DNA of 64,000 bases from an uncultured Bacteroidota bacterium (GCA_937950125.1 CALFEP010000305.1:978-64977); one strand, 5' to 3'; positions 3,432 through 60,752 are shown, counted from the stretch's first letter. Translations and numbers: made by a program. Notes: generated from the letters alone by a model not told the origin.

Positions 3432-5228
3432 TTATCTGATAAGGGTACATTTTTTTATGTCAACATAATTTCCGGCCTTTAGCCTTAAAAAGTACAATCC
3501 TGGCTGTTCGTTTTCAACTGACCAGGACACCGTATAGCTTCCGGGGGTTTGTTCATTGTTTACCAGCGTCCTGATTGACCGCCCGGTAATGTCGGAGATG
3601 GTGAGTTCGATATGGCTTTTTTCAGGAATGGTGTAGCTGATGGTGGTTTGAACATTGAAAGGATTTGGGAAATTGTTTTCAAGAATAAATCCAGCAAAAG
3701 GTTCAATTTTACTGTTGGTTTGATGATCAATGCCCGAAGGTCCGCCGGCCCAGTAAATGTCGTCCAGGGCAAATTCGCAGGAAGCACCGTTAACTTCCAA
3801 AATTACAAATTCATAGCTCAACATGCGCAGATCGATCAACTCGCCCCTGATATCAGCCACCGGGATGGAGGCCTGACCCCAGTCGCCGTTCCTGACAAGG
3901 CCATAGGTGGTCTGGTTTGCCGGAAAATCAACATAATTCTGGTTGCCCCAGGCATCAATAATTCCAATTTTAAAACTCACATTGGCTGGAATTTTTATCA
4001 TAAACATGATACTTCCTTCGTCAAAATCGAAGAGGTTGACCGGCTGTATAGACATAATCCCTGCCCCAAACCAGCCCATTCCGGTTGTTGCCCACGATAT
4101 TCCGTTTTCACCTTCATAGGGTGGTATTGAACCATTGGCGAGTGTGCCTTCCCATACATAAATTTCGGAGCTGATTCCTGCCTGCAGCCCATAGTTGGTG
4201 GGCGTATTATCGGTGAATATTCCAAAGGTTCCAATTTCAGCCTGCGGGGGTCCAAGATGTACTTCACCCTGCCCATTCCATTTCGAAACCTTAATGTAGT
4301 CAACAAACATGTCGGCGGGGAAGGGCATCGAAACCGGCAGACCGCTGCCCGGGTTACCGAGTGAGTAAGCATCGGTAAATGTTCCACCTATGGCAAGATT
4401 GGCAATCAGGTAAAAAGGCTGCTGAAATTCGGCTGACACACTGTCGATTGGAAAAGGTTCGGTAAACAGGTCATATTCGGCGCCGTTGTCGATTACCGTG
4501 TACCGGATGTTGTTTTCGTCCCAGTACATCCGATAGATCAGGAATCTGTTGTTGAAAGGATTTGCGTAGTTGTAATACGGGCGGCAATACAAATCATCAG
4601 GGTCCCACGAAATGCTTGCAGCGCCTGAAGGGTTTTCGGGTGTTACGGCATCATCAGAATAAAAAATGGCGTTGGCGCTTACGGCCTGGTTGACGGTGGA
4701 GTTGTTTAAGCCATTTCCCCCGTTATGTTCGTCGTGCAAATCCCTGAACGCCTGTTTGCTGCCCATTTCCATCATGTCGAGTTCACCTTTTCGCGGCCAG
4801 TCGTAATTGGCATTTCCCAGGAGCCACAGGGCAGGCCATCCTCCAAGATTCAGATCGGGCACCAGCACCCGTGTTTCAATCAGCCCGTATTTTACGGTCA
4901 CTTTTGCTTTAGTACTTACCTTGCCCGAAGTGTAGTTCAGGGGGTTGCCCCACTGGTCAACAATGTCGGGTCCGGTTTCCTCTTTGGCAACCAAATGCAG
5001 TGCATTGTTGCCCGGCTCGCCGGGAATTTCATCAATGGTGACATTGTCGGGTTTATAGAATTCCAATTCGCCATTACCCCAGCCCCAGTAGCCATTTCCC
5101 ACGCTTGGCATCCAGTTGTCGAGGTTGTTGAAATCTTCCTGCCAGATTACCTCACCAACCTGACTATAACTGTATTTTGTCATTAAAACGACAAAAACGA
5201 TCATCAACACTTGTTTTATCTTTTTCAT
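3432..5228 (-). CDS. GH16 beta-glucanase (laminarinase-type) with a C-terminal beta-sandwich module and T9SS sorting domain
   Basis: It contains 'GWGNGELEFY' and the GH16 catalytic motif E-x-D-x-x-E ('GELDMMEMG'). The C-terminus 'FPNPFNVQTTISY...GLYFLRLKAGN' is a T9SS CTD. The start is trimmed from the TTG at 5249 to the ATG at 5228, giving signal peptide MKKIKQVLMIVFVVLMTKYSYS|Q. Confidence 0.9.
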   Translation of the reverse strand: MKKIKQVLMIVFVVLMTKYSYSQVGEVIWQEDFNNLDNWMPSVGNGYWGWGNGELEFYKPDNVTIDEIPGEPGNNALHLVAKEETGPDIVDQWGNPLNYTSGKVSTKAKVTVKYGLIETRVLVPDLNLGGWPALWLLGNANYDWPRKGELDMMEMGSKQAFRDLHDEHNGGNGLNNSTVNQAVSANAIFYSDDAVTPENPSGAASISWDPDDLYCRPYYNYANPFNNRFLIYRMYWDENNIRYTVIDNGAEYDLFTEPFPIDSVSAEFQQPFYLIANLAIGGTFTDAYSLGNPGSGLPVSMPFPADMFVDYIKVSKWNGQGEVHLGPPQAEIGTFGIFTDNTPTNYGLQAGISSEIYVWEGTLANGSIPPYEGENGISWATTGMGWFGAGIMSIQPVNLFDFDEGSIMFMIKIPANVSFKIGIIDAWGNQNYVDFPANQTTYGLVRNGDWGQASIPVADIRGELIDLRMLSYEFVILEVNGASCEFALDDIYWAGGPSGIDHQTNSKIEPFAGFILENNFPNPFNVQTTISYTIPEKSHIELTISDITGRSIRTLVNNEQTPGSYTVSWSVENEQPGLYFLRLKAGNYVDIKKCTLIR

Positions 5229-5419
5229 AAATGCTGGTATCTTTTTCAAAAGTCTTTAAAAATAGTTTTTTTCTGATTCAAAAAATTAATGAATATGCAC
5301 CAAATTGATTTTACCTGCTTTACCACATTTTGCCTGAATTTCAGGCTCCGGTGATTTGCTCTGTTTATCCCAGACTGAAAAAATGTATTATAACCAAAAC
5401 ATTATTAACATTTTAACCT

Positions 5420-5491
5420 TTCAAAAGTCAATAAAACAGGGGCATGTAACGAAACCATACCTGTTGTGCAGGTGAGGCGGTTACATACCCC
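5420..5491 (-). terminator. Long imperfect hairpin plus T-rich tail downstream of the 5514-8660 gene
   Basis: GGGGCATGTAAC (5439-5450) pairs with GTTACATACCCC (5480-5491) with one mismatch. An inner ACCTG/CAGGT stem is also present. On the minus strand the hairpin is followed by TGTTTTATTGACTTTTG. Confidence 0.45.
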
Positions 5492-5513
5492 TTAATCATT
5501 AAATATCAAAACG

Positions 5514-8500
5514 CTACTCAACCACCACTTTTTTGATAGCGGTAGTCACTGAATTTGAAATCCTTACCATGTAAACGCCCTTCGGCTGATTACTTAAATC
5601 AAGCTGTAATGAGCCTGAAATTTTAGAAGAATACACCAACTGTCCGTGCATGTTTGTAACGCTGAATGTGCAAGCGTCGGAAACGTCGGTGTTGATGGTA
5701 AACCTACCGTTGTTTGGATTTGGGAATATGGTGAAAGCAATCGTTTCGCCATAATTTATTCCGGTTGTTCCTTCTTTAAACTCACTGATTACCGAAAGTC
5801 CGTCTTTGGCAAACAACCCATTCCGGTCAGCAAAGCTTTGGTTAAAAACAGGAACGACTTCCGTTTCTTTACCATCTCTGAAAATCCTGAATGTCATCAT
5901 TTCGCCCTGGATAAGGCCATCTTTTGCTGCTGTTGTTATATCGTCACCATAAATCACCAGCGGCATAACAGCACCTTCATTATTTGCCGATATTCCGCAG
6001 CACAATCCCTGATTATCGAAAACACCAACGATGTCATTAGGCAAAACGGCCATACCCGACACAGAAATAATGTGCTGTTCGCCTGTTTTGTTTACGGCAT
6101 TCCATGATGGAACAAATGGATTGGCATGATTAAATCTTTTTGCTGGAGCTGATTTTGGAGGTACAAGACCAAAGTCAACAATGGTTGCATTTTTTACATT
6201 GATAAGATAGGCAAAGCCGGGATACATGGTTGTGAGCGCGCCGTTCACTCCCGGAACAATGCCTCCAGCCGGCCAGTAAACTTCACCGGTGGAAATATCA
6301 AACATAAAATTGATGTTATTTCCAAGCGGGAGGATAACATCCTCCAAACTTGCCGGTTCTTCGCTCAACACCGGGAGTAAGCTGGTGCCAGCACTGAGGG
6401 CAACGGTTCTGTTTTCAAGCGGCGTTCCTTCAAATTGAAAATCAACACCTGCGCTGAATTTTACCTTGTAACCCTGGTAAGTATCCCAGTTACCAATCGT
6501 ATTGATATTCTGACCCGGCCAGAATAGCCCGTTTTTACCCAACAGGATAATCATATCATCCAGGATTGGCGCAAAGAGTTCTTCCATCGAAATTTTTGCC
6601 ACCGGGTTGACGTTGCTCGAAATACCATTCCAACCGGCAGGGTATGTCGGGCATTCGTCACAACTGTTCCAGCAAACGGCTGGCAACACGGTGTTATCGA
6701 CGACTTCGAGAGACCTGTTGGTAAAACCTCCTAAGGTTACCGTGCATGGTTCTCCACCGGCAAATTCTTCCCAGATATCCCAGCCATTCAAGGTGAATTT
6801 ATACTGGTAAGACCCCTCGAGCAGTGGAAGGGTGATTTCGAATACACCATCCATGTCGTCGTCGGTAAGTATGTTGCAACTGCCACACCACCCGTTAAAG
6901 GTTCCGTTCAGGGTTACAATGGAGTAACCACCCTGGTATTGGTTCATGTCAACTTTAAATGTCACATCATAAATTGCCGGAGGTTCGCCGCACGGATCGC
7001 AGCTATTCCAGCATACTTCGGGCAATACGACGGATTCTGTCACCTGAAGGAATCGGTTGGTAAAGCCCCAGTTGGTTACTGTACAAGGTTCACCGCCAAC
7101 AAAGTTTTCCTGTACTGCCCAGTTGTCGATGGTGAATTTGTATTCATAGGCGCCTTCTGCCAACGGAAGTGTTATAGAATAAATCCCGTCGAGGTCAGGA
7201 TCGGTCATCAGGTTGCAATTGCCGCACCAGCCATTCATGGTTCCACTCACGTAAACATTTCCGAAAGCATTTAAATACTGGTTCATGTCAACGTTAAAGG
7301 TAACATCGGGCGGTATAAAAGTGCAGGTTTCGCAACTGTTCCAGCAAACAGCCGGTAAAACCATCGATCCGGTTACTTCAAGCGCCCTGTTGGTGTAGCC
7401 GCCATTGGTAACCGTACAGGGCTCACCTCCCTGAAACTGTTCCTGAACCGACCAGTTGTCAAGTGTAAATTTGTATTCATACGAGCCATCGGCTAATTCA
7501 AGGGTGGTTTCATAAATATCGTCCATTTCCGGATCAAGTAGCTGGTTTGCATCACCCGACCATCCATTAAAAGAACCGCTAACGTAAACATTCCCAAAAG
7601 AATTTCCATATTGCGACATGTCCACTTTAAAGGTTACTGTCGTTGAAGTGGATGGATTTTTCCAGAAATACCAGTTGTCAAAATAAACAGTACCATTCCC
7701 GTCAACCTTGAATTGGAAAACATCCGACAGATTTACCGGAGGGACAAAATGTGAAAGTGGGATATCGACACTTACCCAGGTTTCCTGAGTGATTGGAAGT
7801 GTATAGCTTGTTTCGGCGCCGGGGCTGATCAGGTAAAACTTCAGGCTGGTGGAGTTGGGTGTCCAGAAGTCAAGATGTATGTATTCATAGCCCGAAACAT
7901 TTTGGTTTGAAAACTGTGTTCCCTGATAATTGAGGTTTGCATACTTCAGGGTATTGTTACCAGCCGCTAGAAAATCAACCGTCACAGTAGTTGACTGTCC
8001 CCAGTTTGGGTTAAAATTGGTACCAGCCAGGTTGGGGTACACTTCGGTGTAGATGGAAAGTACATTTTCGGGAGCATGGCCCGGGACGGGCGGAACCGTT
8101 GTAGGTTCGGCCAAAGGAGGTGCGATAAATCCGTCAGGTACCTGAATGTTGTCAAAATAAATGACATTATCTCCCGGACGAGGATTAAAATCGAAATCGG
8201 GAATAATCACAATCCGGCTGTAGCTGTTTCCAACCGAACCTGAAAAATCGAAGGTAATCTCTTCCCATTGGTTGATTAATGTGTTGGCAACCTGAATTTC
8301 AACCCCTCCACTCATCCCTTCAAATTTCATCCCTACATTACTGATTTTCGATTTGTAAATCATGATTTTCACCAACTTGTTGGATTGGTCGAATACAAAC
8401 GCACCATCGCCGTCGGTAAAACATAAAGCCCAGGGTTGTCCATACTGCCTGACGGTGAACTTTGCCACCGAAGGTGTGGTGTTTATGCCGCCACTAACCG

Positions 8501-8660
8501 GGTTGGCAATAAATTCCAGCGGTGGATTATCTGCATTTTCAACCATACTCCACGACCAGTCGGCGCCCGTACCGGCGGGTTCAAAATCGATGGTGTGTGT
8601 AACTTGTGCCGTTATTGTGCCTGCAATAACCAGCATCAATACAAAGAAAAAATTTCTCAT
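5514..8660 (-). CDS. Modular secreted glycan-binding-type protein (no catalytic domain recognised) with T9SS CTD
   Basis: The signal peptide ends 'TITA|Q'. The N-terminal 'X1' and 'X2' modules resemble those of 12787-13842 closely (many identical positions by eye). Three tandem CBM20/48-like repeats follow ('VTFxVDM...FNGW...YEYKF...CWNSC'), then a 'GW/YWP-INT' double module, a 'GDxIGxF...YGDD' module and the CTD 'FPNPNNGRFTIN...GVYMVRI'. Confidence 0.75.
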   Translation of the reverse strand: MRNFFFVLMLVIAGTITAQVTHTIDFEPAGTGADWSWSMVENADNPPLEFIANPVSGGINTTPSVAKFTVRQYGQPWALCFTDGDGAFVFDQSNKLVKIMIYKSKISNVGMKFEGMSGGVEIQVANTLINQWEEITFDFSGSVGNSYSRIVIIPDFDFNPRPGDNVIYFDNIQVPDGFIAPPLAEPTTVPPVPGHAPENVLSIYTEVYPNLAGTNFNPNWGQSTTVTVDFLAAGNNTLKYANLNYQGTQFSNQNVSGYEYIHLDFWTPNSTSLKFYLISPGAETSYTLPITQETWVSVDIPLSHFVPPVNLSDVFQFKVDGNGTVYFDNWYFWKNPSTSTTVTFKVDMSQYGNSFGNVYVSGSFNGWSGDANQLLDPEMDDIYETTLELADGSYEYKFTLDNWSVQEQFQGGEPCTVTNGGYTNRALEVTGSMVLPAVCWNSCETCTFIPPDVTFNVDMNQYLNAFGNVYVSGTMNGWCGNCNLMTDPDLDGIYSITLPLAEGAYEYKFTIDNWAVQENFVGGEPCTVTNWGFTNRFLQVTESVVLPEVCWNSCDPCGEPPAIYDVTFKVDMNQYQGGYSIVTLNGTFNGWCGSCNILTDDDMDGVFEITLPLLEGSYQYKFTLNGWDIWEEFAGGEPCTVTLGGFTNRSLEVVDNTVLPAVCWNSCDECPTYPAGWNGISSNVNPVAKISMEELFAPILDDMIILLGKNGLFWPGQNINTIGNWDTYQGYKVKFSAGVDFQFEGTPLENRTVALSAGTSLLPVLSEEPASLEDVILPLGNNINFMFDISTGEVYWPAGGIVPGVNGALTTMYPGFAYLINVKNATIVDFGLVPPKSAPAKRFNHANPFVPSWNAVNKTGEQHIISVSGMAVLPNDIVGVFDNQGLCCGISANNEGAVMPLVIYGDDITTAAKDGLIQGEMMTFRIFRDGKETEVVPVFNQSFADRNGLFAKDGLSVISEFKEGTTGINYGETIAFTIFPNPNNGRFTINTDVSDACTFSVTNMHGQLVYSSKISGSLQLDLSNQPKGVYMVRISNSVTTAIKKVVVE
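6651..7640 (-). repeat. Three tandem intragenic repeats of about 105-113 aa (CBM20/48-like, Cys-containing)
   Basis: These are residues 341-446, 452-557 and 565-670 of the 1048-aa protein. Each shows the pattern VTF.VDM.QY...V.(V/L).G(S/T).NGW.G...(L/M).D...D.(I/V)(Y/F)..TL.L..G.Y.YKF...W...E.F.GGEPCTVT..G(Y/F)TNR.L.V....VLP.VCWNSC..C. Confidence 0.85.
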
Positions 8661-8775
8661 GAGTTTTAATTTTAGTTAATAAATAATGTTTAAAAATCAA
8701 TGTTTTAAAATGAAAACTATATTTTTTAATGTTAAGTGCCGGAGGATCGATCACACCCCAGGTACTTAAATCCGG

Positions 8776-9462
8776 TCAGTTTTTAACAGCTGTCTGAAAC
8801 ACCCTCACATAGTCGATTTCCATGCTTTGTGGAAAAATTGAGTTGTCAATTCCCTGTGCGCCACCCCATGATCCTCCTACGGCTACATTCAGGATGAAAA
8901 ATGCCGGCTGGTCGAACGGCCAGTTTTCAGGCGTTTTCACATCCGGAGAATACACATGAACGATGTTTTCGGGCGTGTCAACATAAAATGTTAATGAGTC
9001 AGATGTCCAATCCATGCCGTAAATATGAAAATCTTCCTCACAGGTTGTTACCACCATCGAGCTTCCACTACCGCCACCACCGTATCCTGATGGAGTATGA
9101 ACCGTTGAATACACTGTATTCGGGTTGTAACCCACGTATTCCATAATGTCCATTTCGCCGCAGGCTGGCCAGCCATTTGTCCAGAAATTCTGTCCCAGCA
9201 TCCAGATGGCCGGCCAGATACCTGTTCCTGATGGTAGTTTTGCTCTTATCTCCATTCTACCGTACTGAAACTCCTTTTTCCCTGCTGTAATGAGCCTGGA
9301 TGATGTGTAAGAACCGGGTTGGAAAAGATTATTGACCAATTCAGCAGTGATGATCAGCTTTCCATCCACAACTTCTGCGTTTTCGCCGTTGGTGTAATTC
9401 TGCAACTCACCGTTGCCCCAGCCGCCTGAACCCGTTTCAAAAGTCCAGACTTCCGGGTTCAC
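8776..9462 (-). CDS. GH16 catalytic domain fragment (segment 3 of 3 of the interrupted 8776-13842 frame)
   Basis: It contains 'GWGNGELQNYT' and the catalytic 'GEMDIMEY', and ends 'IDYVRVFQTAVKN' at a TGA. The ORF-track 'M' is a GTG. There is no signal peptide, and the first GH16 strand ('LIWSDEFD') lies upstream of the in-frame TGA at 9469-9471. Confidence 0.8.
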   Translation of the reverse strand: MNPEVWTFETGSGGWGNGELQNYTNGENAEVVDGKLIITAELVNNLFQPGSYTSSRLITAGKKEFQYGRMEIRAKLPSGTGIWPAIWMLGQNFWTNGWPACGEMDIMEYVGYNPNTVYSTVHTPSGYGGGGSGSSMVVTTCEEDFHIYGMDWTSDSLTFYVDTPENIVHVYSPDVKTPENWPFDQPAFFILNVAVGGSWGGAQGIDNSIFPQSMEIDYVRVFQTAVKN

Positions 9463-9468
9463 CGCACT

Positions 9469-9471
9469 TCA
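9469..9471 (-). other. In-frame TGA inside the GH16 domain, at the expected Gly position
   Basis: The minus strand reads TGG TCG GAT GAG TTT GAC TGA AGT GCG GTG AAC CCG GAA GTC TGG, which translates W S D E F D * S A V N P E V W. Confidence 0.95.
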
Positions 9472-12400
9472 GTCAAACTCATCCGACCAAATCAACTCAT
9501 AATTTCCTGAACATTCAGGATAAGTGAAAGTGACGCCTTCGTCAGTATAAATGAAGTAAGACTTGCCGGGTTTCAGTACCGGCAAGGTATTTATTTCTTT
9601 GCCAGGCCAGTAAATTCCGATACCGGCTACCTCTTTAACTGCAACAACCTGTGGTAATCCTCCGAACAAGACAGCCGTATTTATATCACAGCTTGTTGTT
9701 ACAGGCACCACCGACCATCCCGCCGGGAGTGTGATGGTGCGTGATGCAACCTCATAGCCTGCAAAGGGAATTTGTGCGCCATTAATCATTTTAATGACGT
9801 AGCCTTTTTGTGAATCCCAGTTACCAAGTGTGTTTATGCCTTGTGAAGGTTGATAAATTCCGTCATCGCCATAGATAATTTCGATATCATTGGCAAAATT
9901 CCCAAACAACTCCTCAATACTGGTATTTGCCGGGATGACAAAACTCGAGATACCACTCCAGCCGGTTTGTGGCGAAATCAGCTGCAGCTGTGGCATTTCT
10001 TCTTCGAGCAACACCAGGTCATCAAAATAAAACTGACCGGGAATGAGGTGATTTTCACCACCCATTTGAATCACAAGCTGGTCGTAATCATCCCGGTTGG
10101 CAACGCTGCCAAAATCGAAGGTTAATGTCTGCCATTGGTCAAACGTAGTTACGGTCTGAAGAATTTCGGTTTGCGTTGTCCATGCATTTGGCCCCAGCAG
10201 GCTGTTTTGCAGTTTGATGGCTGCTGTGGTGGTCAAAGCTCCCGAATAATCGTTAGAAGACGGGAAATAAACCCTCATTTCGAAAACATGACGGTTGGTA
10301 AGGTTCATGCGATGATCGAGAATATTTTGGGCATTGGTGTAAAGAAAACCTCCCGACCGGTTGTAGTCAGCCACATGGTTGCCTGGATTTACAGGATCAG
10401 CAACAATCGATAGATTAACCAGGTCGGGGCTGTCCTGAAATTTCCAGTCAGTAATAGTAGCAAACCCGTCGTTCTCAAAATTATCCTGAATATCGCTTTC
10501 AAGAAGTGGTTTGTAGAGCGGTTCACCATTTGGCTGTGGCCCTTTGATATCGTCAAAATAGAAAACATTGGGTGTGGTGCTTTCAAAATCGAAAAACAGG
10601 ATGATGTTGTCATAAATGTCTGATTCTTCACCCGAAAAATCGAAATTCAGGCTTTGCCAGGTATTTACCAGCGTAACATAGGCCGACCTTTGCGTGTTCT
10701 GAGCCGGGTTGAGCGTGCTTTCAAGTTTCAATAAAACTTCGCACGTTACCGGCGAATAGATCGAAAACTGGAAATAATGGTCCACAGCAAAATTTACTGT
10801 AGAGTCAACAATGGTGAAAATGTTGGAATATGGCTCGGCTGGCCGGGATAATCTGCCAACGTTGGCACTAGTATTTATCCCTGAAGGATTTGGATTGGCA
10901 ACCACTTCAGGCGCCACAGGCCAGCCCGAAAATTCAACATTGACATTTGCGTCAAAGTCAGTATAGATGAAAGAAGGCTCGACGAATTCCGATACCACAA
11001 TGTATTCTGTTTTAGTCAGTTCATCACTGGTGAAAGGGTTGGATGCTTTGAGCTTAACGGAGTAAACCCCAGGAGTTTCATAAACGAAAAGAGGATTTTT
11101 AACGCTTGAATCGATAATTCCATCGTTGTTGAAATCCCATTTCCATTGGGTTATGTTTCCAAGCGAAAGATCGGTAAACTGCACAGCCATGGGTGTAAAA
11201 CCATTTCGCGGGCTTGCTGTAAAATTGGTAAGAATGCCCGAAGTTGAAGGCAGCAGAATGAAATCGTCGAAATAAAACTGCCCCTGATCGTTGTGGTTTT
11301 CACCCCCCAATTGTACGATAACCTGGTCGTAATTAACACTATCGGTGGCTGAGGTAAAAACAAAATCCAGCGTCACCCACTGGTCAAACTGTGTTACTGT
11401 CTGTACAATTTCGGTTTGCGTTGTGTAAGCATTCGCTCCAAGCAGGCTGTTTTGCAGTTTTACAGCAGCTGTAGGTGAAAGCCCTTTGCTGTAATTGTTT
11501 GATGAGGGGAAGTAAACCTTCATCCTGAATTTGTTACGCTGGGTCAATTTCATCCGGTGATCGAGGATAAACTGGGCATTGGTGTACAGAAACCCTCCAG
11601 ACCTGGCATATTCAGCCACATGATTAACAGGGTTCGTGGGATCGCTGGTAATGGTCAGGTTTACAAGGTCAGGGCTGTCCTGGAAGCGCCAGTTTTCGAT
11701 GTTTCCAAAACCATCGTCTTCAAAATTGTCGTTAATATCCAATGCCAGATATGGTTTTGGCTCCTGAAGGGTCGAAAAAGTCACGCTCTGGCCAGCAACC
11801 GGATTTCCCCCCTGATAACGGATAACTCCATCGTTTAAAGCAAGATAATATGTCTGTTCGTATTGCAGGCCACCGGTTGGAATAATGGTGATGAGTGTTT
11901 TTTGAGCGTTAATTGTACCCGTAAATGGCACAGAAGCACCTCCGGAGTTGTCCAGTTTCAATGTTACAATGGACGGAATATCTCCATTTGTAATGGCGCT
12001 TCCGTTGGTCTTTTCAACAGGAATTGTGAAGTTGAAAGTGGGATTTGTTGCTAACGGAATGTTCACCGATCCATTGGCAGGAGTTATGGTGAGGCTCCCC
12101 GTTCCCGGGTATTTCCAGAAATACAGGTTATCAAACCAGATGTCGCCGTTTCCTTCAGTTTTAAACTGAAAAACCTGTGAAAGATTTACTGGTGGTGAAA
12201 AGTGCGATAGTGGAATGTCCACACTCACCCATTGCTCAGGCTGGATGGTAAAAACATATTCTTTTTCCAATGGTCCAGGGCTGATGAGGTAAATTCCAAG
12301 ATCAGTTGAATTGGATGTCCAGAAATCAACATGCAGGAAGTCGTAGTCAGAAACATTCTGGCTGGTGAATTCGGTTCCCTGATAATTCAGGTTCTGATAG

Positions 12401-12744
12401 CGGAGTGTATTATTTCCTGCTACCACATAATTTACAGTAACGATGGTTTGTTGACCCCACCAGGGGTTGAAGTTCGTACCGGCAAGGTTTGAATATTGGT
12501 CACTGTAAACCGAAATGACATCTTCCTCAGCATGGGTTGGAACTGGTGGAACGGTTGATGGTTCGGGGCTTGCCAACGAAAAATTCACACTGTAGGTCAG
12601 GGTGTTAATCCCGTTTTGAGCGGTAACCACAACATTGGTGGTTCCTGGCAGCGAAGCAGCATTGTTGACAACAAAACTTGCATTTGGATCATTTGTAACT
12701 GCAGTCACTACCGGTACGGTGGTCGTCCCATAAGGCAATTCCAC
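9469..12744 (-). CDS. Segment 2 of 3 of the interrupted frame: a multi-module glycan-binding region
   Basis: The frame is actually open from 12786. The ORF-track start at 12744 is a GTG lying mid-domain. There is no signal peptide. Module order is rest of the cadherin-like module, X2, an Ig-like (SbsA/Big_5-type 'TPANGS.N') module, A module, PKD ('WDFNNDG...YSVKL'), X3, A module, GW/YWP-INT double module, then the first GH16 strand. Confidence 0.7.
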   Translation of the reverse strand: MELPYGTTTVPVVTAVTNDPNASFVVNNAASLPGTTNVVVTAQNGINTLTYSVNFSLASPEPSTVPPVPTHAEEDVISVYSDQYSNLAGTNFNPWWGQQTIVTVNYVVAGNNTLRYQNLNYQGTEFTSQNVSDYDFLHVDFWTSNSTDLGIYLISPGPLEKEYVFTIQPEQWVSVDIPLSHFSPPVNLSQVFQFKTEGNGDIWFDNLYFWKYPGTGSLTITPANGSVNIPLATNPTFNFTIPVEKTNGSAITNGDIPSIVTLKLDNSGGASVPFTGTINAQKTLITIIPTGGLQYEQTYYLALNDGVIRYQGGNPVAGQSVTFSTLQEPKPYLALDINDNFEDDGFGNIENWRFQDSPDLVNLTITSDPTNPVNHVAEYARSGGFLYTNAQFILDHRMKLTQRNKFRMKVYFPSSNNYSKGLSPTAAVKLQNSLLGANAYTTQTEIVQTVTQFDQWVTLDFVFTSATDSVNYDQVIVQLGGENHNDQGQFYFDDFILLPSTSGILTNFTASPRNGFTPMAVQFTDLSLGNITQWKWDFNNDGIIDSSVKNPLFVYETPGVYSVKLKASNPFTSDELTKTEYIVVSEFVEPSFIYTDFDANVNVEFSGWPVAPEVVANPNPSGINTSANVGRLSRPAEPYSNIFTIVDSTVNFAVDHYFQFSIYSPVTCEVLLKLESTLNPAQNTQRSAYVTLVNTWQSLNFDFSGEESDIYDNIILFFDFESTTPNVFYFDDIKGPQPNGEPLYKPLLESDIQDNFENDGFATITDWKFQDSPDLVNLSIVADPVNPGNHVADYNRSGGFLYTNAQNILDHRMNLTNRHVFEMRVYFPSSNDYSGALTTTAAIKLQNSLLGPNAWTTQTEILQTVTTFDQWQTLTFDFGSVANRDDYDQLVIQMGGENHLIPGQFYFDDLVLLEEEMPQLQLISPQTGWSGISSFVIPANTSIEELFGNFANDIEIIYGDDGIYQPSQGINTLGNWDSQKGYVIKMINGAQIPFAGYEVASRTITLPAGWSVVPVTTSCDINTAVLFGGLPQVVAVKEVAGIGIYWPGKEINTLPVLKPGKSYFIYTDEGVTFTYPECSGNYELIWSDEFD

Positions 12745-12786
12745 ATCATAACTCAGATCGGTTGGAGAAAATCCCGGAATGGTTGT

Positions 12787-12789
12787 TCA
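12787..12789 (-). other. In-frame TGA inside a cadherin-like beta-sandwich module, at the expected Gly position
   Basis: The minus strand reads CTA AGC AAC CTC TTG GTT AAC TGA ACA ACC ATT CCG GGA TTT TCT CCA, which translates L S N L L V N * T T I P G F S P. Confidence 0.95.
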
Positions 12790-13842
12790 GTTAACCAAGA
12801 GGTTGCTTAGTGTCGCATCAGTTCCCTGAGCAACGGGATTTTTCCAGAAATACCAGTTATCGAAAAATACCGTACCATTTCCGGTAACCTTAAACTGGAA
12901 AACGTTGGCAAGATTAACCGGGGGAACATAGGCTGAAAGGGGTATATCCACGCTTACCCATGAATTGTGCACAACAGGCAGCGTGTAGGACGTTTCTGCG
13001 CCCGGACTGATCAGGTAAAACTTCAGGTCAGTGGAATTGGATGTCCAGAAATCAACATGCAAAAAGTCGAATAACGAAACATTCTGGTTCATGTACTCAG
13101 TGCCTTGGTAATTCAGGTTCTCGTATTTGAGGGTGGCATTTCCGGCAGCCATGTAATTTACAGTTACAGAAGTTGATTGTCCCCAGTTGGGTGTAAAATT
13201 AGTACCGGGCAGGTTGTTGTAAACTTCGGTATAAATTGAAATGACATTGGCCTGGAGGTGCGAAGGGATTGGAGGAACCGTTGTTGGCTCTGGCAATGGG
13301 GGCGCCACCGTGCCATCGGGTACCCTTAGGTTATCAAAATAAATGATTCTGTCCTGTGTTCGCGGATCAAAGGTAAAATCGGGAATGACGATCACCCTGC
13401 TGTAGGTTTTACCAATGGACGCAGTAAAATTGTACGTCAGTTCCTGCCATTGGTTGACCAAAGTATTGGCGACGGCTAATTCAACCGCAGGGCTTAATCC
13501 CTCGAACTTAATGGTTACGTTGCTGACCACCGGTTTGTAAACCATAATTTTTACGATGCAGTTTGACGCATCAAATGTAAATTCGCCATCATCGTCGGTA
13601 TAACATAACGCCCAGGGGGCCCCGTTTTGCCTGACAGTGAATTTTGCTGCTTTTAAACTTGTGTTTATGCCCCCGATGACCGGGTTGGAAACGAATTCAA
13701 GCGGAGGATTGTTTCCGTTTTCAACCACAACCCAGTCCCAATCTGCCCCTGTTCCGGCAGGTTCAAAATCGATGTTGTGCGTGCTTTGCGCCAAAACATT
13801 GATGGTGAACAACAATAATAATGCAGGTAAAATTTTTTTCAT
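12787..13842 (-). CDS. Segment 1 of 3 of the interrupted frame: signal peptide, X1, X2 and the start of a cadherin-like module
   Basis: It starts at an ATG with signal peptide 'MKKILPALLLLFTINVLA|Q'. X1 and X2 are paralogous to the N-terminus of 5514-8660. It ends '...GTDATLSNLLVN' at the TGA. Confidence 0.8.
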   Translation of the reverse strand: MKKILPALLLLFTINVLAQSTHNIDFEPAGTGADWDWVVVENGNNPPLEFVSNPVIGGINTSLKAAKFTVRQNGAPWALCYTDDDGEFTFDASNCIVKIMVYKPVVSNVTIKFEGLSPAVELAVANTLVNQWQELTYNFTASIGKTYSRVIVIPDFTFDPRTQDRIIYFDNLRVPDGTVAPPLPEPTTVPPIPSHLQANVISIYTEVYNNLPGTNFTPNWGQSTSVTVNYMAAGNATLKYENLNYQGTEYMNQNVSLFDFLHVDFWTSNSTDLKFYLISPGAETSYTLPVVHNSWVSVDIPLSAYVPPVNLANVFQFKVTGNGTVFFDNWYFWKNPVAQGTDATLSNLLVN

Positions 13843-13908
13843 GTGTATTTGTGTTAATGATTAAATATTTTGTCTTGCGTTTGTTTTAAAAAATAAGACA
13901 GGTAAGCT

Positions 13909-13950
13909 AAAAAAATGCCAGCCCGGCAATACGACAGTGTAGCCGGGCTG
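13909..13950 (-). terminator. Rho-independent terminator after the 13956-16964 gene
   Basis: A perfect 9-bp stem, CAGCCCGGC (13919-13927) with GCCGGGCTG (13942-13950), is followed on the minus strand by T7 (A7 at 13909-13915 on the plus strand). Confidence 0.7.
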
Positions 13951-13955
13951 ATCAT

Positions 13956-16900
13956 TTATTTACTAACCAAAACCTTTGTTATGAAATACTCACCATGAAA
14001 AGTGTAAGCAATTAAAGTGTAAATCCCAGCCGGTAAATACCCTACCGGGATTTGTTCAGGAATTTGCTGGATACGGACCATCTGTTGTCCGGTAGCATTG
14101 TAAATTTCGATGTAAGATAAATTTTGTGCTGAGGAAATCTGAAGCACATCTGACACCGGATTTGGATAAACAGTAAGTAAGTCTTTTGGTTTTTCCTGAA
14201 CCGAGATGGAGGTATCGAGCAACCGGATGTCATCAAAATAAAACTGTGCTGTTTCCCAATGGCCTTCTCCGCCAAGTTGAACCACCACCTGGTCGTAATT
14301 CATGCTATCGGCAGCCTGGCTGAAATCGAAGGTGATGGTTACCCACTGGTCGAACGTCTGGACGGTTTCTTTTACTTCTGTTTGTGTAGTCCAGGCATTA
14401 GGTCCCAAAAGACTGTTTTGCAGTTTGATGGAAGCCGTAGGCGTAAGCGATCCCGTGTAATTGTTGGTAGAAGGAAAATACACTTCCAGTTCAAACATGT
14501 TGCGCTGGTGAAGATCCATGCGGTGGTTCAGAACAAATTGGGCATTGGTCCATTCAAAATTTCCTGAACGGTTGTAATCGGCTACATGGTTTGAAGGATT
14601 TAACGGATCGGTGACGATGGTCAGCGGAACAAACTCCGGGTCCTGAAACAGCCATTCGCCGATCGTGCCCCATCCATTGTTCTCAAAATTGTCCTGAACA
14701 TCAAGGGCAAGATAGGGCTTTACGGTGTTATTTTCGGTGGTAAAGGTAATGCTCTGTCCAGCAATCAGGTCAGCATTCTGATACCTGATAACCTCATGAT
14801 TCAGTGCAACATAATATGTTTGGCCGTAACTCAGGTCGTCAACCGGATTAATGGTAATAACCGTTTTTTCGGCATTGATGGTTCCGTTAAAAGGTACCAA
14901 TGGTCCACCGGCATCCGACTCCCTGAAAGTTACAATTGCAGCAATATCGCTGTTGCTGATGGCATTTCCGTTGGCCATGGTAACCGGTACAGAAAAACTT
15001 AAGGTAGGATTTATCGTAATTTCTATATTATTTGCTCCATTGGATGGAAAAAATGTGAGTGTGCCGTTTCCTGAAGCACCCATCAATTCGATGTCATCAA
15101 AATAAAACTGTGCAGGTTCAAAATGGCCTTCGCCACCCAATTGAACCACCACCTGGTCGTAATTCATGCTGTCTGCAGCCTGGCTGAAATTAAAAGTCAG
15201 GGTAACCCACTGGTCAAAATTCTGAACTGTTTGGATTACTTCCGTTTGCGTTGTCCAGGCATTGGGGCCTAACAGGCTGTTTTGCAATTTGACAGAAGTT
15301 GTGGGAGTGAGTGAACCTGTGTAATTATTGGTTGAAGGAAAATATACCTTTAACTCGAATTCATTGCGTTGATGAAGGTCCATCCGGGGATTCAGAATAA
15401 ACTGGGCATTTGTCCATTCAAAGCTTCCTGAACGTTGGTAGTCAGCCACATGATTTGATGGATTAACAGGATCTGTAACTATGCTGAGCGGTACTAAATT
15501 TGGATCTTGGAAAAACCATTCTTCGATGGTGCCCCAGCCACTGTTTTCAAAATTGTCCTGAACATCAAGGGCAAGATAAGGTTTTTGATCGTTTTCGGTG
15601 GTAAAAGTAACATTTTGCCCTGGTATCAGGTCAGCATTTTCGTACCTGATCACCTCATTATTAAGAGCCAGATAATACACCTGACCAAAGAGCAGGTCAT
15701 CAACCGGATCGATGGTAATAATGGTTTTTTCGGCGTTGATGGTACCCGTAAAAGGAACCAGCGGACCTCCTGCATCCGATTCCCTGAAAGTGACAATTCC
15801 GGCAATATCGCTGTTGCTGATTGCATCTCCATTGGCCATTGTTACCGGAACCGAAAAACTTAATGAAGGGCTAACAGTAATTTCCACATTCGTTGATCCA
15901 TTGGCAGGTGTAAATGTGAGAGTTCCATTGCCGGATGCACCCATCAGTTGAAGGTCATCAAAGTAAAACTGCCCCGGCTCCCAGTGACCTTCGCCACCCA
16001 ACTGAATCACCACCTGGTCGTAAATTGTACAATCGGCAACTGCTGCAAAATCAAACGAAAGCGTCACCCACTGATCAAATGCTGAAACATTTACCAATCG
16101 TTCTGTTTGGGTAGTCCATGCATTTGGGCCAAGCAGGCTGTTTTGCAGTTTGATGGCTGTGGTGGGAGTGAGTGAACCTGTGTAATTGTTGGATGAAGGG
16201 AAAAATACCTTCATTTCGAAAAGATTACGCTGATGGAGGTCCATCCTGTGATCGAGGATGAACTGGGCGTTGGTGTACTGGAAACTTCCCGAACGGTTAT
16301 AATCGGCAACATGGTTTGATGCATTAACAGGATCGGTGGTTATTGTCAGAGGTACCAGGTTTGGGTCCTGAAAAAACCATTCTTCGATGGTTCCCCATCC
16401 ATTGTTTTCAAAATTGTCCTGTACATCCAGTGCCAGATAGGGTTTGGGGGGTACAGCGCCGGCATATTCAGGCCCGGTTACATCATCGAAATAAAAGGTA
16501 TTGGGCGTGGTTGTGGCAAAATCGAAGAAAACTACAATTTTATCGTACAATCCCGACTGCCCGCTACTGAAATTGTAACTCAACTGAACCCAGGTGTTGG
16601 GTGTCGTTATATTGGCGCTTATCTCGGTGAATATCCCACTGTTGGTTTTATCCTCGAGTTTGAACAACACCTGACAGGCAATTGGCGACCATGCCTTAAG
16701 CATAAAAACAGTGCCTGTTGAAAAGTCAATTTTTCCATCCAACAGACAGTAAACATGCGCCCATTGCTCACCCGACCTGTCCCATTGTGCAACACCTGCA
16801 CTGGTGTTAATTCCGGATGGATCGGGATTTGCAATTACAACTGGTGTGTTTGGCCATCCCAGGAATGGCTCGTTCTGATTTGCATCAAAATCATTGTACG

Positions 16901-16964
16901 TGTATTGTGCATTAAGGTTTGCCACCATAATCAACAGCGACAAAAAGAATAGAAATTGTTTCAT
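13956..16964 (-). CDS. Repetitive secreted glycan-binding-type protein: X3, then (A module - Ig-like) x2, then A module, then T9SS CTD
   Basis: The signal peptide ends 'NLNA|Q'. Three A modules of about 167 aa ('KPYLALDVQDNFEN.GWGTI.EW.FQDP...QLGGEGH....QFYFDD') alternate with two SbsA/Big_5-type Ig modules. The CTD is 'VYPNPVSDVLQIS...GIYTLIAY'. Confidence 0.75.
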   Translation of the reverse strand: MKQFLFFLSLLIMVANLNAQYTYNDFDANQNEPFLGWPNTPVVIANPDPSGINTSAGVAQWDRSGEQWAHVYCLLDGKIDFSTGTVFMLKAWSPIACQVLFKLEDKTNSGIFTEISANITTPNTWVQLSYNFSSGQSGLYDKIVVFFDFATTTPNTFYFDDVTGPEYAGAVPPKPYLALDVQDNFENNGWGTIEEWFFQDPNLVPLTITTDPVNASNHVADYNRSGSFQYTNAQFILDHRMDLHQRNLFEMKVFFPSSNNYTGSLTPTTAIKLQNSLLGPNAWTTQTERLVNVSAFDQWVTLSFDFAAVADCTIYDQVVIQLGGEGHWEPGQFYFDDLQLMGASGNGTLTFTPANGSTNVEITVSPSLSFSVPVTMANGDAISNSDIAGIVTFRESDAGGPLVPFTGTINAEKTIITIDPVDDLLFGQVYYLALNNEVIRYENADLIPGQNVTFTTENDQKPYLALDVQDNFENSGWGTIEEWFFQDPNLVPLSIVTDPVNPSNHVADYQRSGSFEWTNAQFILNPRMDLHQRNEFELKVYFPSTNNYTGSLTPTTSVKLQNSLLGPNAWTTQTEVIQTVQNFDQWVTLTFNFSQAADSMNYDQVVVQLGGEGHFEPAQFYFDDIELMGASGNGTLTFFPSNGANNIEITINPTLSFSVPVTMANGNAISNSDIAAIVTFRESDAGGPLVPFNGTINAEKTVITINPVDDLSYGQTYYVALNHEVIRYQNADLIAGQSITFTTENNTVKPYLALDVQDNFENNGWGTIGEWLFQDPEFVPLTIVTDPLNPSNHVADYNRSGNFEWTNAQFVLNHRMDLHQRNMFELEVYFPSTNNYTGSLTPTASIKLQNSLLGPNAWTTQTEVKETVQTFDQWVTITFDFSQAADSMNYDQVVVQLGGEGHWETAQFYFDDIRLLDTSISVQEKPKDLLTVYPNPVSDVLQISSAQNLSYIEIYNATGQQMVRIQQIPEQIPVGYLPAGIYTLIAYTFHGEYFITKVLVSK
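14220..16445 (-). repeat. Intragenic tandem duplication with a period of about 861 bp (2.6 units)
   Basis: A modules start at residues 174, 461 and 749. The antisense shadow ORFs 14851-15105 and 15712-15951 are near-identical and offset by 861 nt, which shows DNA-level conservation. Confidence 0.85.
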
Positions 16965-17087
16965 TTTGGTTACGTTTAATTATTATTTATTCTAAAATAT
17001 TTTATTTTGAAAAATCTATCCATTAAGTGTTAATAATCAAATAATTGCCTTTTTATTAACTGCTTTAAGCTTATTTTTTCCCCCAAC

Positions 17088-20000
17088 TTACTGCACGATC
17101 ATTTTACCTACCCTGATCTTGTTGTCATGGTTGGTAATCATGACGTAAATACCTTTTTTTAAATCACTTACATCAATTTTATCGCCTGACGAAACTGATT
17201 TTCTGAACAGTACGGTTTTTCCAAAGAAATCATACACAGTCAGTTCAGTTCCCGGGCTGATATTGAAGATAGCAAATTCATCTGTAACAGGATTCGGATA
17301 AAACAGCAAAGGCGAAGACAAAAATTCTTCTATTCCCGATTGAATACAGTTGCTCCCGACTTCGTAGGAAATATATTTTGTAACAGACATGCCTCCGGCA
17401 AATGCAAATTTGCAAGCATAGCTGATGGTTGCCCCAATGGTTTGACCTGTGAGTGTGTAAGTAAATAACCGACCGCTTACATGGGTCATCTGCACTTCTG
17501 TAAATGGATTTTGCTTCCATAGGTAGGCTACCACGCCAGATTTCTCGTCTAACAGTTCAAAAGTAACAATCACATTGGTTCCAACGGTTTCGTAAGACCA
17601 GTTGTAGCCATCGGTAAATGAACCCTGTGAAGCCTCTGTTGACGTTCCGTTACACAGCATCAGGGGTGAAACGGTTATCTGTATGGTTTGGGAAATGCCG
17701 GTAGCCCCTTCATTGTCAGTGGCTATAGCATCGATGTTGTAGATTCCTGGGATTGGATTCCATTCAATGGTGAAGGGTGCAGTGCTAACCGATTGAATCA
17801 GGGTGTCGTTTTTAAAAAATTCAACTTTCTGCACGGTTCCGTCAAAATCGCTGGCTATTGCTGAGAGCGTTATGGTGTTTCCTTGAGTAAAAGTTGCATT
17901 TTGGGTTGGTGCTATGAGCGCAACCACAGGTGGCGCATTCTGGAATGCAGTAACCATAACAAGTACCTCGTCGCTATCGCTGTGCAGGCCGGGATTGGTT
18001 GCTTTTAAACTGAAGCTGTACATGCCCTCCTCAAGCCCTGAAACGTAAGGATTAACTGCAGCCGGATTTGAAATGGCTGCCAGCGTCGGGCCATAATTTT
18101 GTGTCCATAAAAAGCTGAGTGGTTGTCCACCTGATTCGCTGCTTGCTGAGCCATCCAGTGTGGCTGAATTCAGCGGAAGAATAACCTTAAAATCTTCACC
18201 GGCATTGGCTGTCGGATAGGTAAAATTCAAATCACCTGTCCTGGTGAAGGTTAATTTTCCAAGATTAAATTCCCCGGCTGAAAATGCGATACGCAATACC
18301 TGCTGGCCGGGCGTGAGTGGCAGATTATTCACAGTTTTTGTAGCCCACACATCCCACCCTGAGGTGGTTGGAACAGAAATGGGATCGGAAATTGCCAGTC
18401 CGTCTGCCAACATTGTAAAAGGCCCTCCACCTGCTGTATTGTCTGAAGCATAGCGGAAAGCCAGCGAATAAAAACCTGACTGTGCAACATTTACAGTATA
18501 TTCTGTCCATTCTCCGGAGGCAATGTACTCAATGGTTGCACCTTCAACGGGATTAAGAAAAGCATCCACGGATTCATTGGTTCTGTAATCGCCTTTATTG
18601 TTGGCATCCGAATCAAAATAGGAAATATTCTGTCCTTTTCCCCCGATGTAAAAATCGTAGTTGCCTGCCTCAAGGGTTCCGGGTATCGTCAAAGCTCCAC
18701 CACCATAAGGATACTGGTCGCCAACCTGTACTTTAACAGTATTGGTGATGTTGAACCTGTCACCATCGAAAATTTTAGCATAAAAGCTGTGAATTCCAAA
18801 CTGCAGGTTTGTGGCATTGAAGGTAAAAGGCGGGGAGATGACAGTTCCCAGAGAAGTTGAACCATCCATAAACTCAACTTTCGTGGGTGAACCGGCAGTG
18901 ATATTCAAATTCAGATTTACATTTCCTCCAAGGAATGCCTGCCCGAACGGGGTGGATAAATCGCCGGTAACGCTACAATCAAGGCTGGTCACCATCTTCC
19001 CCGCAGGAACCTCAAGTTGATATCCATCGGAAAAGTTGACAGTGATGGGTTCATCAGCGTAATTGTTTGCCACATAGTTGGTAATGCCGTTGGAGTTAAA
19101 TGCCATTGCACCAGGGTAATCGCTGGTAATGTCAGGGTTAAATTGCCCCAGGGCATTCATGGCATGAATCCAGTGGTAGGTTTGCGCATCCGAAACGCCA
19201 AATTTCAATTCACGGTCAGGATACGAGTTATACATTCCGATTGCCTGCTCCGGATCGATGAACGAAAGAAATTTCCACCACTCGTCGAGCCATAGGTTGG
19301 GATTTGGATCATTGTTCAGAATACCCGTGTTGGCAGCCACTTCATTCCACAACTGTAGTGTATAATCTGCATCAATTGCAAGGTAGAATGAACCACCCTG
19401 GATGGGGTAAATTTCGATACCGTAAGAGGCGGCAATATCGCCGGTCCAAAAGGTCTGGTTATCGAAAGCATTTCCCCAAAGCCTCGAAATGAGCGAATAT
19501 TGCTGCGATGGAGGAAAATTCCGGTTGTGAATATCCAGATAATATTCTTCAATTCCTGTATATTCGGTGGTGTAAAGGTAAATACCCAGGTCGCGGATGG
19601 CATCATTGCCGGTAACAGCGCCCCATTGGATGAGTGCTGAACTAAACATCATGCTCTCGGAGCTTGATTCCTGATTGTTGCCGTTGGGATATCCTGCAAA
19701 CCCATCTGCCCAGCTATGCCCGGCGTATGGACTGAAATTTCTCAGGTAAGGAAACATCGGATCGTTGCGGTCATTTGAAGCAGCATCTCTCACAAGCAAA
19801 TTCACCATTCCTCCCCAGTTTTCAGCCCATCCCGGCTCATATTGTTCCACAAAGGCACATGCCTGAATAAAATATCCCCAGTGAAAGTGATGGTCGTTCA
19901 GATTTCCATCCTGACCATAACCGGCCGGATAACCAATCATCGACGACCAGCCTGAATTGTAATAAAAAAGGAATGCCACCTCTCCGGGTTCGGCTTTCAG

Positions 20001-21218: not shown

Positions 21219-22395
21219 TTTGCTTCCTTTTTGAATAACCGAGGTGGTTTTGTCAAGAACATTTGATTTTGGCGAAATTATTATCAATGAATGCGTTATC
21301 CAAATTTTTTACCACAGCAAAATTTCATCATTACAGGTCGCCGATTACATCAATAATACATCATTCGATGTTGTAGCATTCATAAATAAAGCATTTCAGC
21401 ATTGATGGTGTTTAAAATTGGCTATCTCTACACATCACTTACAATGTGGTTAAACATTGTTTTGTGAAGCTTGTATAAAACATGGTGCAATAAAAATGGT
21501 AAGAATTTAATAATAAGAAAAATAGCTGAAGTGCCAATTCCCTTTCTGGCAAATCAAAAGTTGCCTGAATCACGGGGTTATTATTCAATTTACTGGTGAA
21601 AATCATCCATCATTCTAACCTGAATTTTCATAAATATCAGCCCATGGAACAAGAATAATACGTGTTCCGGACGAATTTTGCAAATAAGCAATGGTAAGGG
21701 CAAGTCCTGAAAATATCCCTGCTTTGCCGCCTGGCAGGCACGTTTCGTAATGTTTGTGAATAAATCAGGCGAAAGGGCATTTGATTATTATTTTGTAAAT
21801 TCAAACCGCCTGATCCGGTTATGATTTTCTGTGAGGTGAAAGAAGTGATTTACAGGATATGCTGTCGCAGTTGAGATTTCTCGGTTGCTTTGCCAAATAT
21901 TTCACTAACAAAAAGAAATGAATGTCAGCAAGAGGTGGATTCTACCCCCGCACGTCCCAAAAACCTGACTGCCTTCTCAACTTTGGCTGGCAGGCCGAAA
22001 GGAATCTGAAATTTCAGGGTAATGTCTTTTTCAACAGGTTAGGCGTTTTGAATTTGGTTTAAAAGATTGATGGCAATGCTGCTGCTTTCTTTCATTTTAA
22101 CGGCAGTTTTGTGTGTCCGTTGGTCCAGTTGGCGTAAGTTTTCGGTGGAGAGAATGGCAAACCTGTGTCGGGTTTGTTTGTTCTTTCGTTTTACGATATT
22201 GCAGATTATTTTGTCATGATGTTGCAATTGCATTTCATCCTGAGTCTTTACTTTGCTTCAAATTAGCGATGTACTTTCCGGTGAATGCTTTGATCCGTTC
22301 AGATTAGGCGAAAATCGTTTCAAAAAATCGCATTGTTTTGGTTTGTCAGCAATGGCGACCAGTTTAACATTCAGGGTGGAAAATTGTTTTTATTG

Positions 22396-60464: not shown

Positions 60465-60752
60465 GCATCAAATATTTTGATTCTCAATTTGTTTAAAATG
60501 CGTGGCGAAAGTAAGCATTTTAGTTGATTCAATGTTCCGTTCAATGGATGAGTTCGGTCTAAAAAGATCAAATTTTAGATTTCTCAACAAAACCTTTATT
60601 AAGCATGCTGAAGTAACACGGAACCTTATGACTGCACAATATTATGAAAACCAATAAATTATCATTTTATAAAATTAATACAACTCTCTATGGCCGACAG
60701 GTTTTACTGGTGAAAAATTAGTTTTTCAAATGATCTCATTGATGTAATTTAT

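Follow-up and report, generated by a model that had tools for sequence, protein, structure and literature searches.

Conserved in-frame UGA codons in a modular GH16 laminarinase-type gene family of Bacteroidota: a probable case of programmed stop-codon readthrough

A modular GH16 gene with two in-frame TGA codons

We analysed a stretch of 64,000 nucleotides (nt) from an uncultured Bacteroidota bacterium (GCA_937950125.1, CALFEP010000305.1:978-64977; the whole stretch is called the window here) and, within it, a minus-strand gene that ends in a catalytic module of glycoside hydrolase family 16 (GH16). An earlier note on this DNA had described one continuous frame, broken only by TGA at 12787-12789 and TGA at 9469-9471. 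Retranslation confirmed the description: the frame from 13842 to 8776 comprises 1,689 codons (1,688 sense positions and the terminal TGA), and its internal stops are the TGA at codon 352 and the TGA at codon 1458, with no others. Gene callers split the gene into three 'proteins' of 351, 1,091 and 228 amino acids (aa). Our comparison with related genes indicates that the in-frame UGAs are probably functional leaky stops, that is, sites of programmed stop-codon readthrough. The parts of the gene are listed below.

8776..13842, minus strand: whole putatively recoded gene, with signal peptide, CBM-like, Cadherin-like, Big_5, CBM_4_9, PKD, domain X and GH16 parts (CBM, carbohydrate-binding module)
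13786..13842, minus strand: N-terminal signal peptide MKKILPALLLLFTINVLAQ, read from the translation and the sole export signal of the frame
12787..12789, minus strand: UGA no. 1 (site 1), context GTT AAC TGA ACA ACC, at a Gly column of the Cadherin-like module; in the window's lineage only
12553..12807, minus strand: Cadherin-like beta-sandwich module containing UGA no. 1 (PF12733, 24.5 bits against a cut-off of 24.2)
9511..9966, minus strand: domain X, about 152 aa, directly before GH16 (window residues about 1293-1444)
9469..9471, minus strand: UGA no. 2 (site 2), context TTT GAC TGA AGT GCG, at a Gly column after the first GH16 strand LIWSDEFD
8779..9504, minus strand: GH16 catalytic module of the laminarinase type, which contains the motif GEMDIME; the first strand is 5' of UGA no. 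2 and the remainder 3'
8776..8778, minus strand: terminal stop, context AAA AAC TGA CCG
Residues 585-691: Big_5 (Pfam)
Residues 703-837: CBM_4_9 (Pfam)
Residues 881-949: PKD (Pfam)
Residues 1489-1678: GH16 (Pfam PF00722, 80 bits)

Both stops had been placed inside domains rather than between them, and this was found to hold, because the PF12733 module spans site 1 and solved laminarinases align from the strand that precedes site 2. The GH16 module aligned with 5wut (E = 4e-71), with 3azx and 3iln (both E = 1e-64) and also with 4dfs, and the alignment of all four structures begins at the LIWSDEF strand, upstream of UGA no. 2. Its domain match, its ExDxxE motif (GEMDIME) and its similarity to these structures identify the module as a predicted laminarinase-type beta-glucanase.

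Reality of the TGA codons and the genetic code in use

The 351-aa fragment was found on 11 contigs and the 228-aa fragment on 14, from about ten assemblies of the window's population (ERZ724078, ERZ724080, ERZ724085-87, SRR3330204, SRR3330208, SRR3330209, SRR3330211 and SRR3330212; coverage up to 25x). Five contigs were compared base by base; they were 99.5-99.98% identical to the window, and both TGAs were kept in 5/5. The 31 distinct single-nucleotide polymorphisms (SNPs) among the strains consisted of 25 synonymous and 6 non-synonymous changes. In one strain variant (L004) a 1-nt deletion and a 1-nt insertion lie 3 nt apart at gene positions 2673 and 2676 (about 11167-11170 in the window), so that the frame is restored within a codon; this pair is consistent with selection for frame retention between the two UGAs. 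We rejected a base-calling or assembly artefact, which the earlier note had considered: about ten assemblies carry the TGAs, on 14 contigs in all, and in-frame TGAs recur in ten further lineages sampled by unrelated studies.

The window has a G+C content of 43.8%, and none of its approximately 20 other long genes carries an in-frame TGA. The 25 ordinary window open reading frames (ORFs) of >= 250 aa end in TAA (18), TAG (3) or TGA (4). Genome-wide reassignment of UGA (codes 4 and 25) was therefore rejected: the other long genes of the window lack in-frame TGA, and TGA serves as a terminator. When the window and 64 loci (about 700 kb) were searched for a single TGA joining two open segments of >= 150 codons, this gene family was the only one found, apart from two probably spurious cases. 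These results agree with the view of the earlier note that chance was an unattractive explanation. Neither the window nor 19 of the loci contained a tRNA gene, so there is no suppressor tRNA near the gene. The pattern AACTGAAC gave 5 matches in the window against 2.3 expected; the other four were outside the frame of any gene when the frames were checked by hand. A further TGA at 60468, just 5' of the ATG of the gene at 57267-60464, lies in a leader that looks non-coding and is irrelevant here.

Conservation of the second TGA in distant relatives

In an alignment of orthologues, the site-2 column was also TGA in L018, L022-24 and L076, which were reached through a 78%-identical GH16 fragment (P0017), through a member of the P0017 cluster and through a representative search, respectively. 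Two of these genes have complete frames whose sole internal stop is the site-2 TGA (L022, 1,686 codons; L076, 1,559 codons), and L018, a 703-codon fragment truncated at its 5' end, has no second internal stop. The site-1 TGA, by contrast, was seen in the window's lineage only. Three further representative proteins end exactly at the Gly column (P0376, P0377 and P0407) and one ends at the Trp column described below (P0381), and they represent further lineages. There was no TGA junction in L015, a Bacteroidales gene of 49% identity whose match spans residues 1-1683 yet leaves the site-2 region unmatched, nor in L014 and L016, which matched residues 8-1294 only, upstream of site 2.

The window, L018 and L022 were compared for their proportions of non-synonymous and synonymous differences (pN and pS). 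Overall identity was 63-69% and pS was saturated at 0.74-0.88, and pN/pS was about 0.30 upstream of the stop and 0.15-0.19 downstream. Across every pair in which both copies carry an in-frame TGA, downstream pN/pS was 0.14-0.22 at a pS of 0.48-0.79, with at most one gap column per 220 codons. One and the same frame is thus under purifying selection on either side of the stop. By these divergences the site-2 UGA predates synonymous saturation and is ancient.

Turnover of the stop between Gly and Trp columns

A metagenome scan with the domain upstream of GH16, together with three further look-ups, yielded seven lineages (L025, L026, L027, L028, L066, L067 and L078), in which the Gly column is filled by a sense codon (GGA, GGG or GAA). 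A single TGA follows in each of them, eight codons past that column, at the conserved Trp of '...N-W-TFETG', and its context is invariably AAC TGA ACT TT(C/T) GAA. The closest pair, L025 and L027, differs by a pS of 0.475, with a downstream pN/pS of 0.14 and zero indels. A neighbour-joining tree divided the lineages with Trp-column TGAs between two distinct clades (bootstrap 99 and 100). L065, closely related to L078, has GGA and TGG and is stop-less; it grouped with L078 (bootstrap 85). Several independent gains, shifts or losses must therefore have occurred, and the stop has repeatedly been set at one of three codons. In total, an in-frame UGA is kept across at least eleven lineages, the window's included, with 12 in-frame TGAs in all, and no further stop or frameshift was seen across the 11 lineages.

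The expectation of a conserved Gly at both sites was only partly borne out. The site-1 column is Gly in 11 of the 12 aligned copies in L006-L012 and also in P0242, P0250, P0256, P0312 and P0360, and the site-2 column is Gly in nine GH16 homologues. Gly is thus the commonest residue at both columns; it is not invariant, since Glu, Ser, Gln and Asp are also found in relatives. At site 1, L022 has GAA, and therefore the stop there is a younger addition in the window's lineage. GAA (Glu) is the codon met repeatedly where a column is neither TGA nor Gly: besides the site-1 column of L022, it occupies the Gly column at the start of GH16 in L025, L027 and L067. GAA is one step from GGA and two from TGA.

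Nucleotide context of the stops

All 12 in-frame TGAs are followed by A, and the preceding codon is AAC in ten, GAC in one and AAT in one. The choice among synonymous codons around the stop is biased: Asn before it is written AAC in 10/11 cases against a background of 0.42 in these genes (P 0.001), and Thr after it is written ACT in 8/9 against a background of 0.25 (P 9e-5). Taken together, the sites give the consensus AAC-UGA-ACU, and synonymous choice is biased both before and after the stop. Furthermore, the Ser after the Gly column is AGT if the column is TGA and TCN if it is a sense codon. The shared context AC-TGA-A given by the earlier note was nearly right, except that L022 has AAT-TGA-A. 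In E. coli, UGA followed by A is reported to be especially open to misreading by tRNA-Trp (PMC5289835, citing Engelberg-Kulka 1981), and the level of readthrough depends on competition between Trp-tRNA and release factor 2 (RF2) and responds to carbon metabolism (PMC10570021). By analogy with E. coli, the stop context observed here would belong to a known leaky type (UGA-A).

Nonsense codons within domains are a classical mark of pseudogenes, and the gene could simply have lost its function, be it as a pseudogene, by repeated knock-out at a mutational hotspot or through sequencing or assembly errors. One related gene, that of L019-L021, indeed appears broken: the reading frame changes within its PKD module. 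We consider loss of function very improbable for the genes with in-frame TGA, however. The same TGAs recur in independent assemblies and studies, and in five lineages other than the window's (L022, L025, L026, L028 and L076) the frame is complete, at 1,559 to about 1,880 codons, with no other stop or frameshift. Synonymous divergence (dS) is saturated, and the low downstream pN/pS holds wherever both copies carry the TGA. Moreover, 618 one-step nonsense mutations are possible in the window gene, of which 480 give TAA or TAG and only 12 give [AG]A[CT]-TGA-A; nevertheless [AG]A[CT]-TGA-A is the sole stop class in the gene family, in which TAA and TAG were never seen. The TGA that L025 and L027 share at a pS of 0.48 speaks against very recent independent mutations in every lineage. 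The recent double-nonsense pseudogene of the earlier note was thus abandoned: the site-2 TGA is older than synonymous saturation, both flanks are under purifying selection, no further disabling mutation was found, and the strain SNPs are 25:6 synonymous to non-synonymous.

The gene in L019 (3780-4020), L020 and L021 is a multi-module gene (P0216 and P0123) that is split in PKD by a TAA and a frame change. The split was seen in three independent assemblies (JGI 3300000230, GCA_974329915.1 and GCA_020719205.1), and it could be a pseudogene or another recoding event.

Continuity of the protein across the stop

If UGA were an ordinary efficient stop, the GH16 part could be made separately by termination-reinitiation or translational coupling, and the gene would be a two- or three-gene operon derived from a fused ancestor. 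Called ORFs of 224-228 aa do begin 3-5 codons past the Gly-column stop, with GTG in the window and ATG in L018 and L022. Bacteroidota in general do not rely on Shine-Dalgarno sites, and without that reliance sequence alone leaves such a restart possible. However, the restart codon is not conserved. The nearest ATG is 22-82 codons off or absent in L076 and the seven Trp-column lineages; in the Trp-column lineages themselves the first ATG is at +41 to +82 codons or absent, and no ATG occurs in the 100 codons that follow site 1. The stretch between the stop and any start is conserved in the protein it encodes, and directly behind the stop (TFETGxxGWGNGELQNYT) the codons change in third positions only. 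Reinitiation would also leave the first GH16 strand stranded on the upstream protein, though it belongs to the crystallised fold; it would produce a GH16 protein without a signal peptide, although the enzyme is a laminarinase of extracellular type; and it would give no role to the synonymous bias around the stop. For these reasons we judge reinitiation improbable.

A ribosomal hop from AAC to the next AAC in AAC-UGA-AC was also rejected, because it would shift the frame by +2 while the conserved protein stays in frame 0.

RNA structure and dedicated recoding

Downstream of site 2 in the window, one RNA structure was found:

9417..9457, minus strand: strong hairpin starting 14 nt after UGA no. 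2 (81-nt fold of -31.8 kcal/mol, z = -3.4)

None of 200 shuffles was as stable (0/200). Folds of four sites gave no comparable hairpin at site 1, in L018 or in L022. An alifold consensus of five Trp-column lineages reached -3.2 kcal/mol, with no covariation, and an Rfam scan returned only a chance match resembling a small nucleolar RNA (E = 0.32). Site 2 of the window combines the least consensus context (GAC-UGA-AGU) with this strong hairpin, which might be a lineage-specific stimulator or a product of chance.

The stops might alternatively be served by a dedicated recoding device. It could be a suppressor resembling tRNA-Gly(UCA), a modified tRNA-Trp whose 4-bp anticodon stem makes decoding efficient, or selenocysteine insertion. 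Gly columns account for two of the three stop positions, and a single substitution turns GGA into TGA; the short conserved context could serve as a recognition signal. Precedents exist in bacteria: UGA-to-Gly decoding is known from Patescibacteria, and UGA is also read by variants of tRNA-Trp(CCA) whose anticodon stem is 4 bp long (PMC13092985). Nevertheless, we give this explanation little credence. The stop sits at the Trp column in seven sister lineages, so that the context is shared and the residue is not; the suggestion of the earlier note that Gly suppression was at work, with glycine as the common denominator, was accordingly not upheld. Ordinary genes on these contigs also end in TGA, and in the window and loci an in-frame TGA is confined to this gene family; a strong general suppressor would be costly. 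The absence of tRNA genes from the window and 19 loci likewise offers such a device no support. Selenocysteine in particular is unlikely: no conserved hairpin of the type of the selenocysteine insertion sequence (SECIS) follows the UGA, Rfam gave no match, and the columns hold Gly, Trp, Glu, Ser, Gln or Asp, with Cys in no examined homologue.

Domain X before the GH16 module

The segment that directly precedes GH16, here called domain X, has the pattern GWSGISS...YWP...PGKxYY...FPxC with two conserved Cys, and it was also found in L029-L064 and P0376-P0523. The stop position is 13-21 codons past the last conserved Cys of this domain. Domain X was represented by 3,398 representative clusters and had no Pfam or NCBIfam match. 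Its AlphaFold model had a mean confidence score (pLDDT) of 92.7, with a tail 'SGNYELIWSDEFD' of low confidence; the model had no fold neighbour in the PDB (best E = 0.78) and gave no functional clue. In many other large secreted proteins, e.g. a C25 peptidase and a multihaem cytochrome, domain X forms the extreme C-terminus, and in some others it stands directly before the sorting domain of the type IX secretion system (T9SS). It may be an undescribed C-terminal module. Termination after domain X would give the protein an end like that of its paralogues, and readthrough would add the enzyme.

Proposed readthrough and its weighing

Plain in-frame readthrough fits the data best, because the lineages share neither a hairpin nor a restart codon, the residues after the stop are conserved, and a GH16 strand lies before it. 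The earlier note had listed programmed UGA readthrough with nested products as one of three readings, and it is now the best-supported one, given the conserved UGA, the downstream constraint and the context. We propose that most ribosomes would stop at the UGA after domain X and release a secreted glycan-binding protein of about 1,457 aa that has several CBMs and is non-catalytic; the window's lineage, with its extra upstream UGA, would make a 351-aa product as well. In a fraction of ribosomes, a near-cognate tRNA would decode UGA within AAC-UGA-A(CU) with the frame kept, and readthrough would append the GH16 endo-beta-1,3-glucanase module to yield a minor isoform of 1,688 residues. The decoding tRNA would most likely be tRNA-Trp(CCA), which is known to behave in this way at UGA followed by A, and at the Trp-column site it would restore the conserved Trp. 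We infer the occurrence of readthrough, its efficiency, the inserted residue and the purpose of two isoforms from the conservation pattern.

Several points weigh against this proposal. All of its support comes from comparative sequence analysis. At the Gly columns, tRNA-Trp would put Trp where most homologues have Gly, and tolerance of Trp there is suggested only by the Glu, Gln, Asp and Ser found in relatives. Because the window's lineage has two UGAs, its yield of full-length protein would equal the two readthrough efficiencies multiplied together, which could be a very small value. Readthrough may also run at a basal level only, since the lineages share no stimulatory RNA structure. The window's terminal stop is AAC-TGA as well (followed by C), so that AAC-UGA alone is insufficient as a signal. 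The P values for codon context take the lineages as independent, which they are not fully, yet synonymous divergence between them is large.

A stronger form of the proposal is that AAC-UGA-ACU is a true recoding signal, efficiently decoded by a specific tRNA or factor, and that it acts as a switch between a binder and an enzyme-fused form, re-created at three codons. Such a switch could be under physiological control, e.g. by carbon supply through the balance of tRNA-Trp and RF2. We regard this form as rather unlikely. If it were true, conserved programmed readthrough would form a class of its own among the cellular genes of bacteria, and annotation pipelines would be fragmenting such genes systematically.

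Genomic neighbourhood

The GH16 gene lies within a beta-glucan degradation cluster on the minus strand (window 3432-21287), whose gene order is partly kept in L018, L022 and L076. Its neighbours are a GH81 gene (1,399 aa) and CBM_4_9/Big_5, CBM48-like and SKN1/GH16-like genes, all of which have the T9SS sorting domain PF18962. No such domain was found in the GH16 gene, nor past its terminal stop in any frame continuation. At that terminal stop AAC-TGA precedes C, and the orthologues mostly end in TAA. The closest named relatives are metagenome-assembled genomes (MAGs), 'Bacteroidetes bacterium bin.444' (73% identity) and a 'Bacteroidales bacterium' (69%).

Comparison with known systems and meaning

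Programmed stop-codon readthrough is well documented in viruses and eukaryotes. In the RNA phage Qbeta, UGA readthrough of the coat protein yields the A1 protein, with Trp inserted by the normal tRNA-Trp. To our knowledge, conserved readthrough in bacterial chromosomal genes is almost absent, selenocysteine aside. The gene family described here resembles Qbeta and the leaky UGA-A of E. coli in that an in-frame UGA is followed by A, the zero frame continues and no elaborate RNA structure is needed; as in Qbeta, a major short product and a minor C-terminally extended one are proposed. It differs from Qbeta in being a bacterial chromosomal gene for a secreted carbohydrate-active enzyme instead of a phage gene. 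The extension is also a whole catalytic domain, the stop lies inside that domain, and it has moved between three codons.

The readthrough genes of eukaryotes (Drosophila and Anopheles; mammalian MDH1, LDHB and VDR, with UGA-CUA) likewise combine a conserved stop, in-frame constraint and a short context. The bacterial apparatus (RF2, not eRF1) and the context are different here, and the stop interrupts a domain, whereas theirs precedes a short extension or a targeting signal. Code 25 (UGA = Gly; Gracilibacteria and Absconditabacteria/SR1) and code 4 (UGA = Trp) also place UGA at columns where relatives have Gly or Trp; unlike in those genomes, there is no genome-wide reassignment here, TGA is a terminator, and a single gene family in the window and loci is affected. 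Bacterial selenoprotein genes share a conserved in-frame UGA with our genes, but theirs comes with a SECIS hairpin; here no hairpin is conserved, homologues have Gly or Trp rather than Cys, and the stop position shifts.

Another class to compare is that of the 'pseudo-pseudogenes', of which Ir75a of Drosophila sechellia is reportedly one. In Salmonella, genes of this kind carry premature stops and the protein is still made (PMC9122581). In both cases pipelines split the gene or call it a pseudogene, and full-length protein is probably still made by recoding. In our gene family, by contrast, the stop is kept across deeply diverged lineages in a selected context, which implies that the stop itself has a function and is not a tolerated recent lesion. 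In full-text searches of the literature, neither this gene family nor conserved readthrough in Bacteroidota was found to have been reported, and no description of the extended consensus AAC-UGA-ACU was met with. What is new here is thus likely to be a conserved, context-defined UGA readthrough in a bacterial cellular gene that parts a catalytic domain from its binding modules.

Databases misrepresent these genes because gene callers split them into two or three 'proteins'. With three stop positions, at least eleven lineages and the stop-less L065 as a control, the gene family provides a natural, conserved test case, which opens the question of how and why bacteria tune UGA termination to experiment. 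For carbohydrate degradation by the organisms themselves, a single gene could supply two products, a glycan binder that is non-catalytic and the fusion of this binder to an enzyme, at a ratio that is either fixed or regulated.

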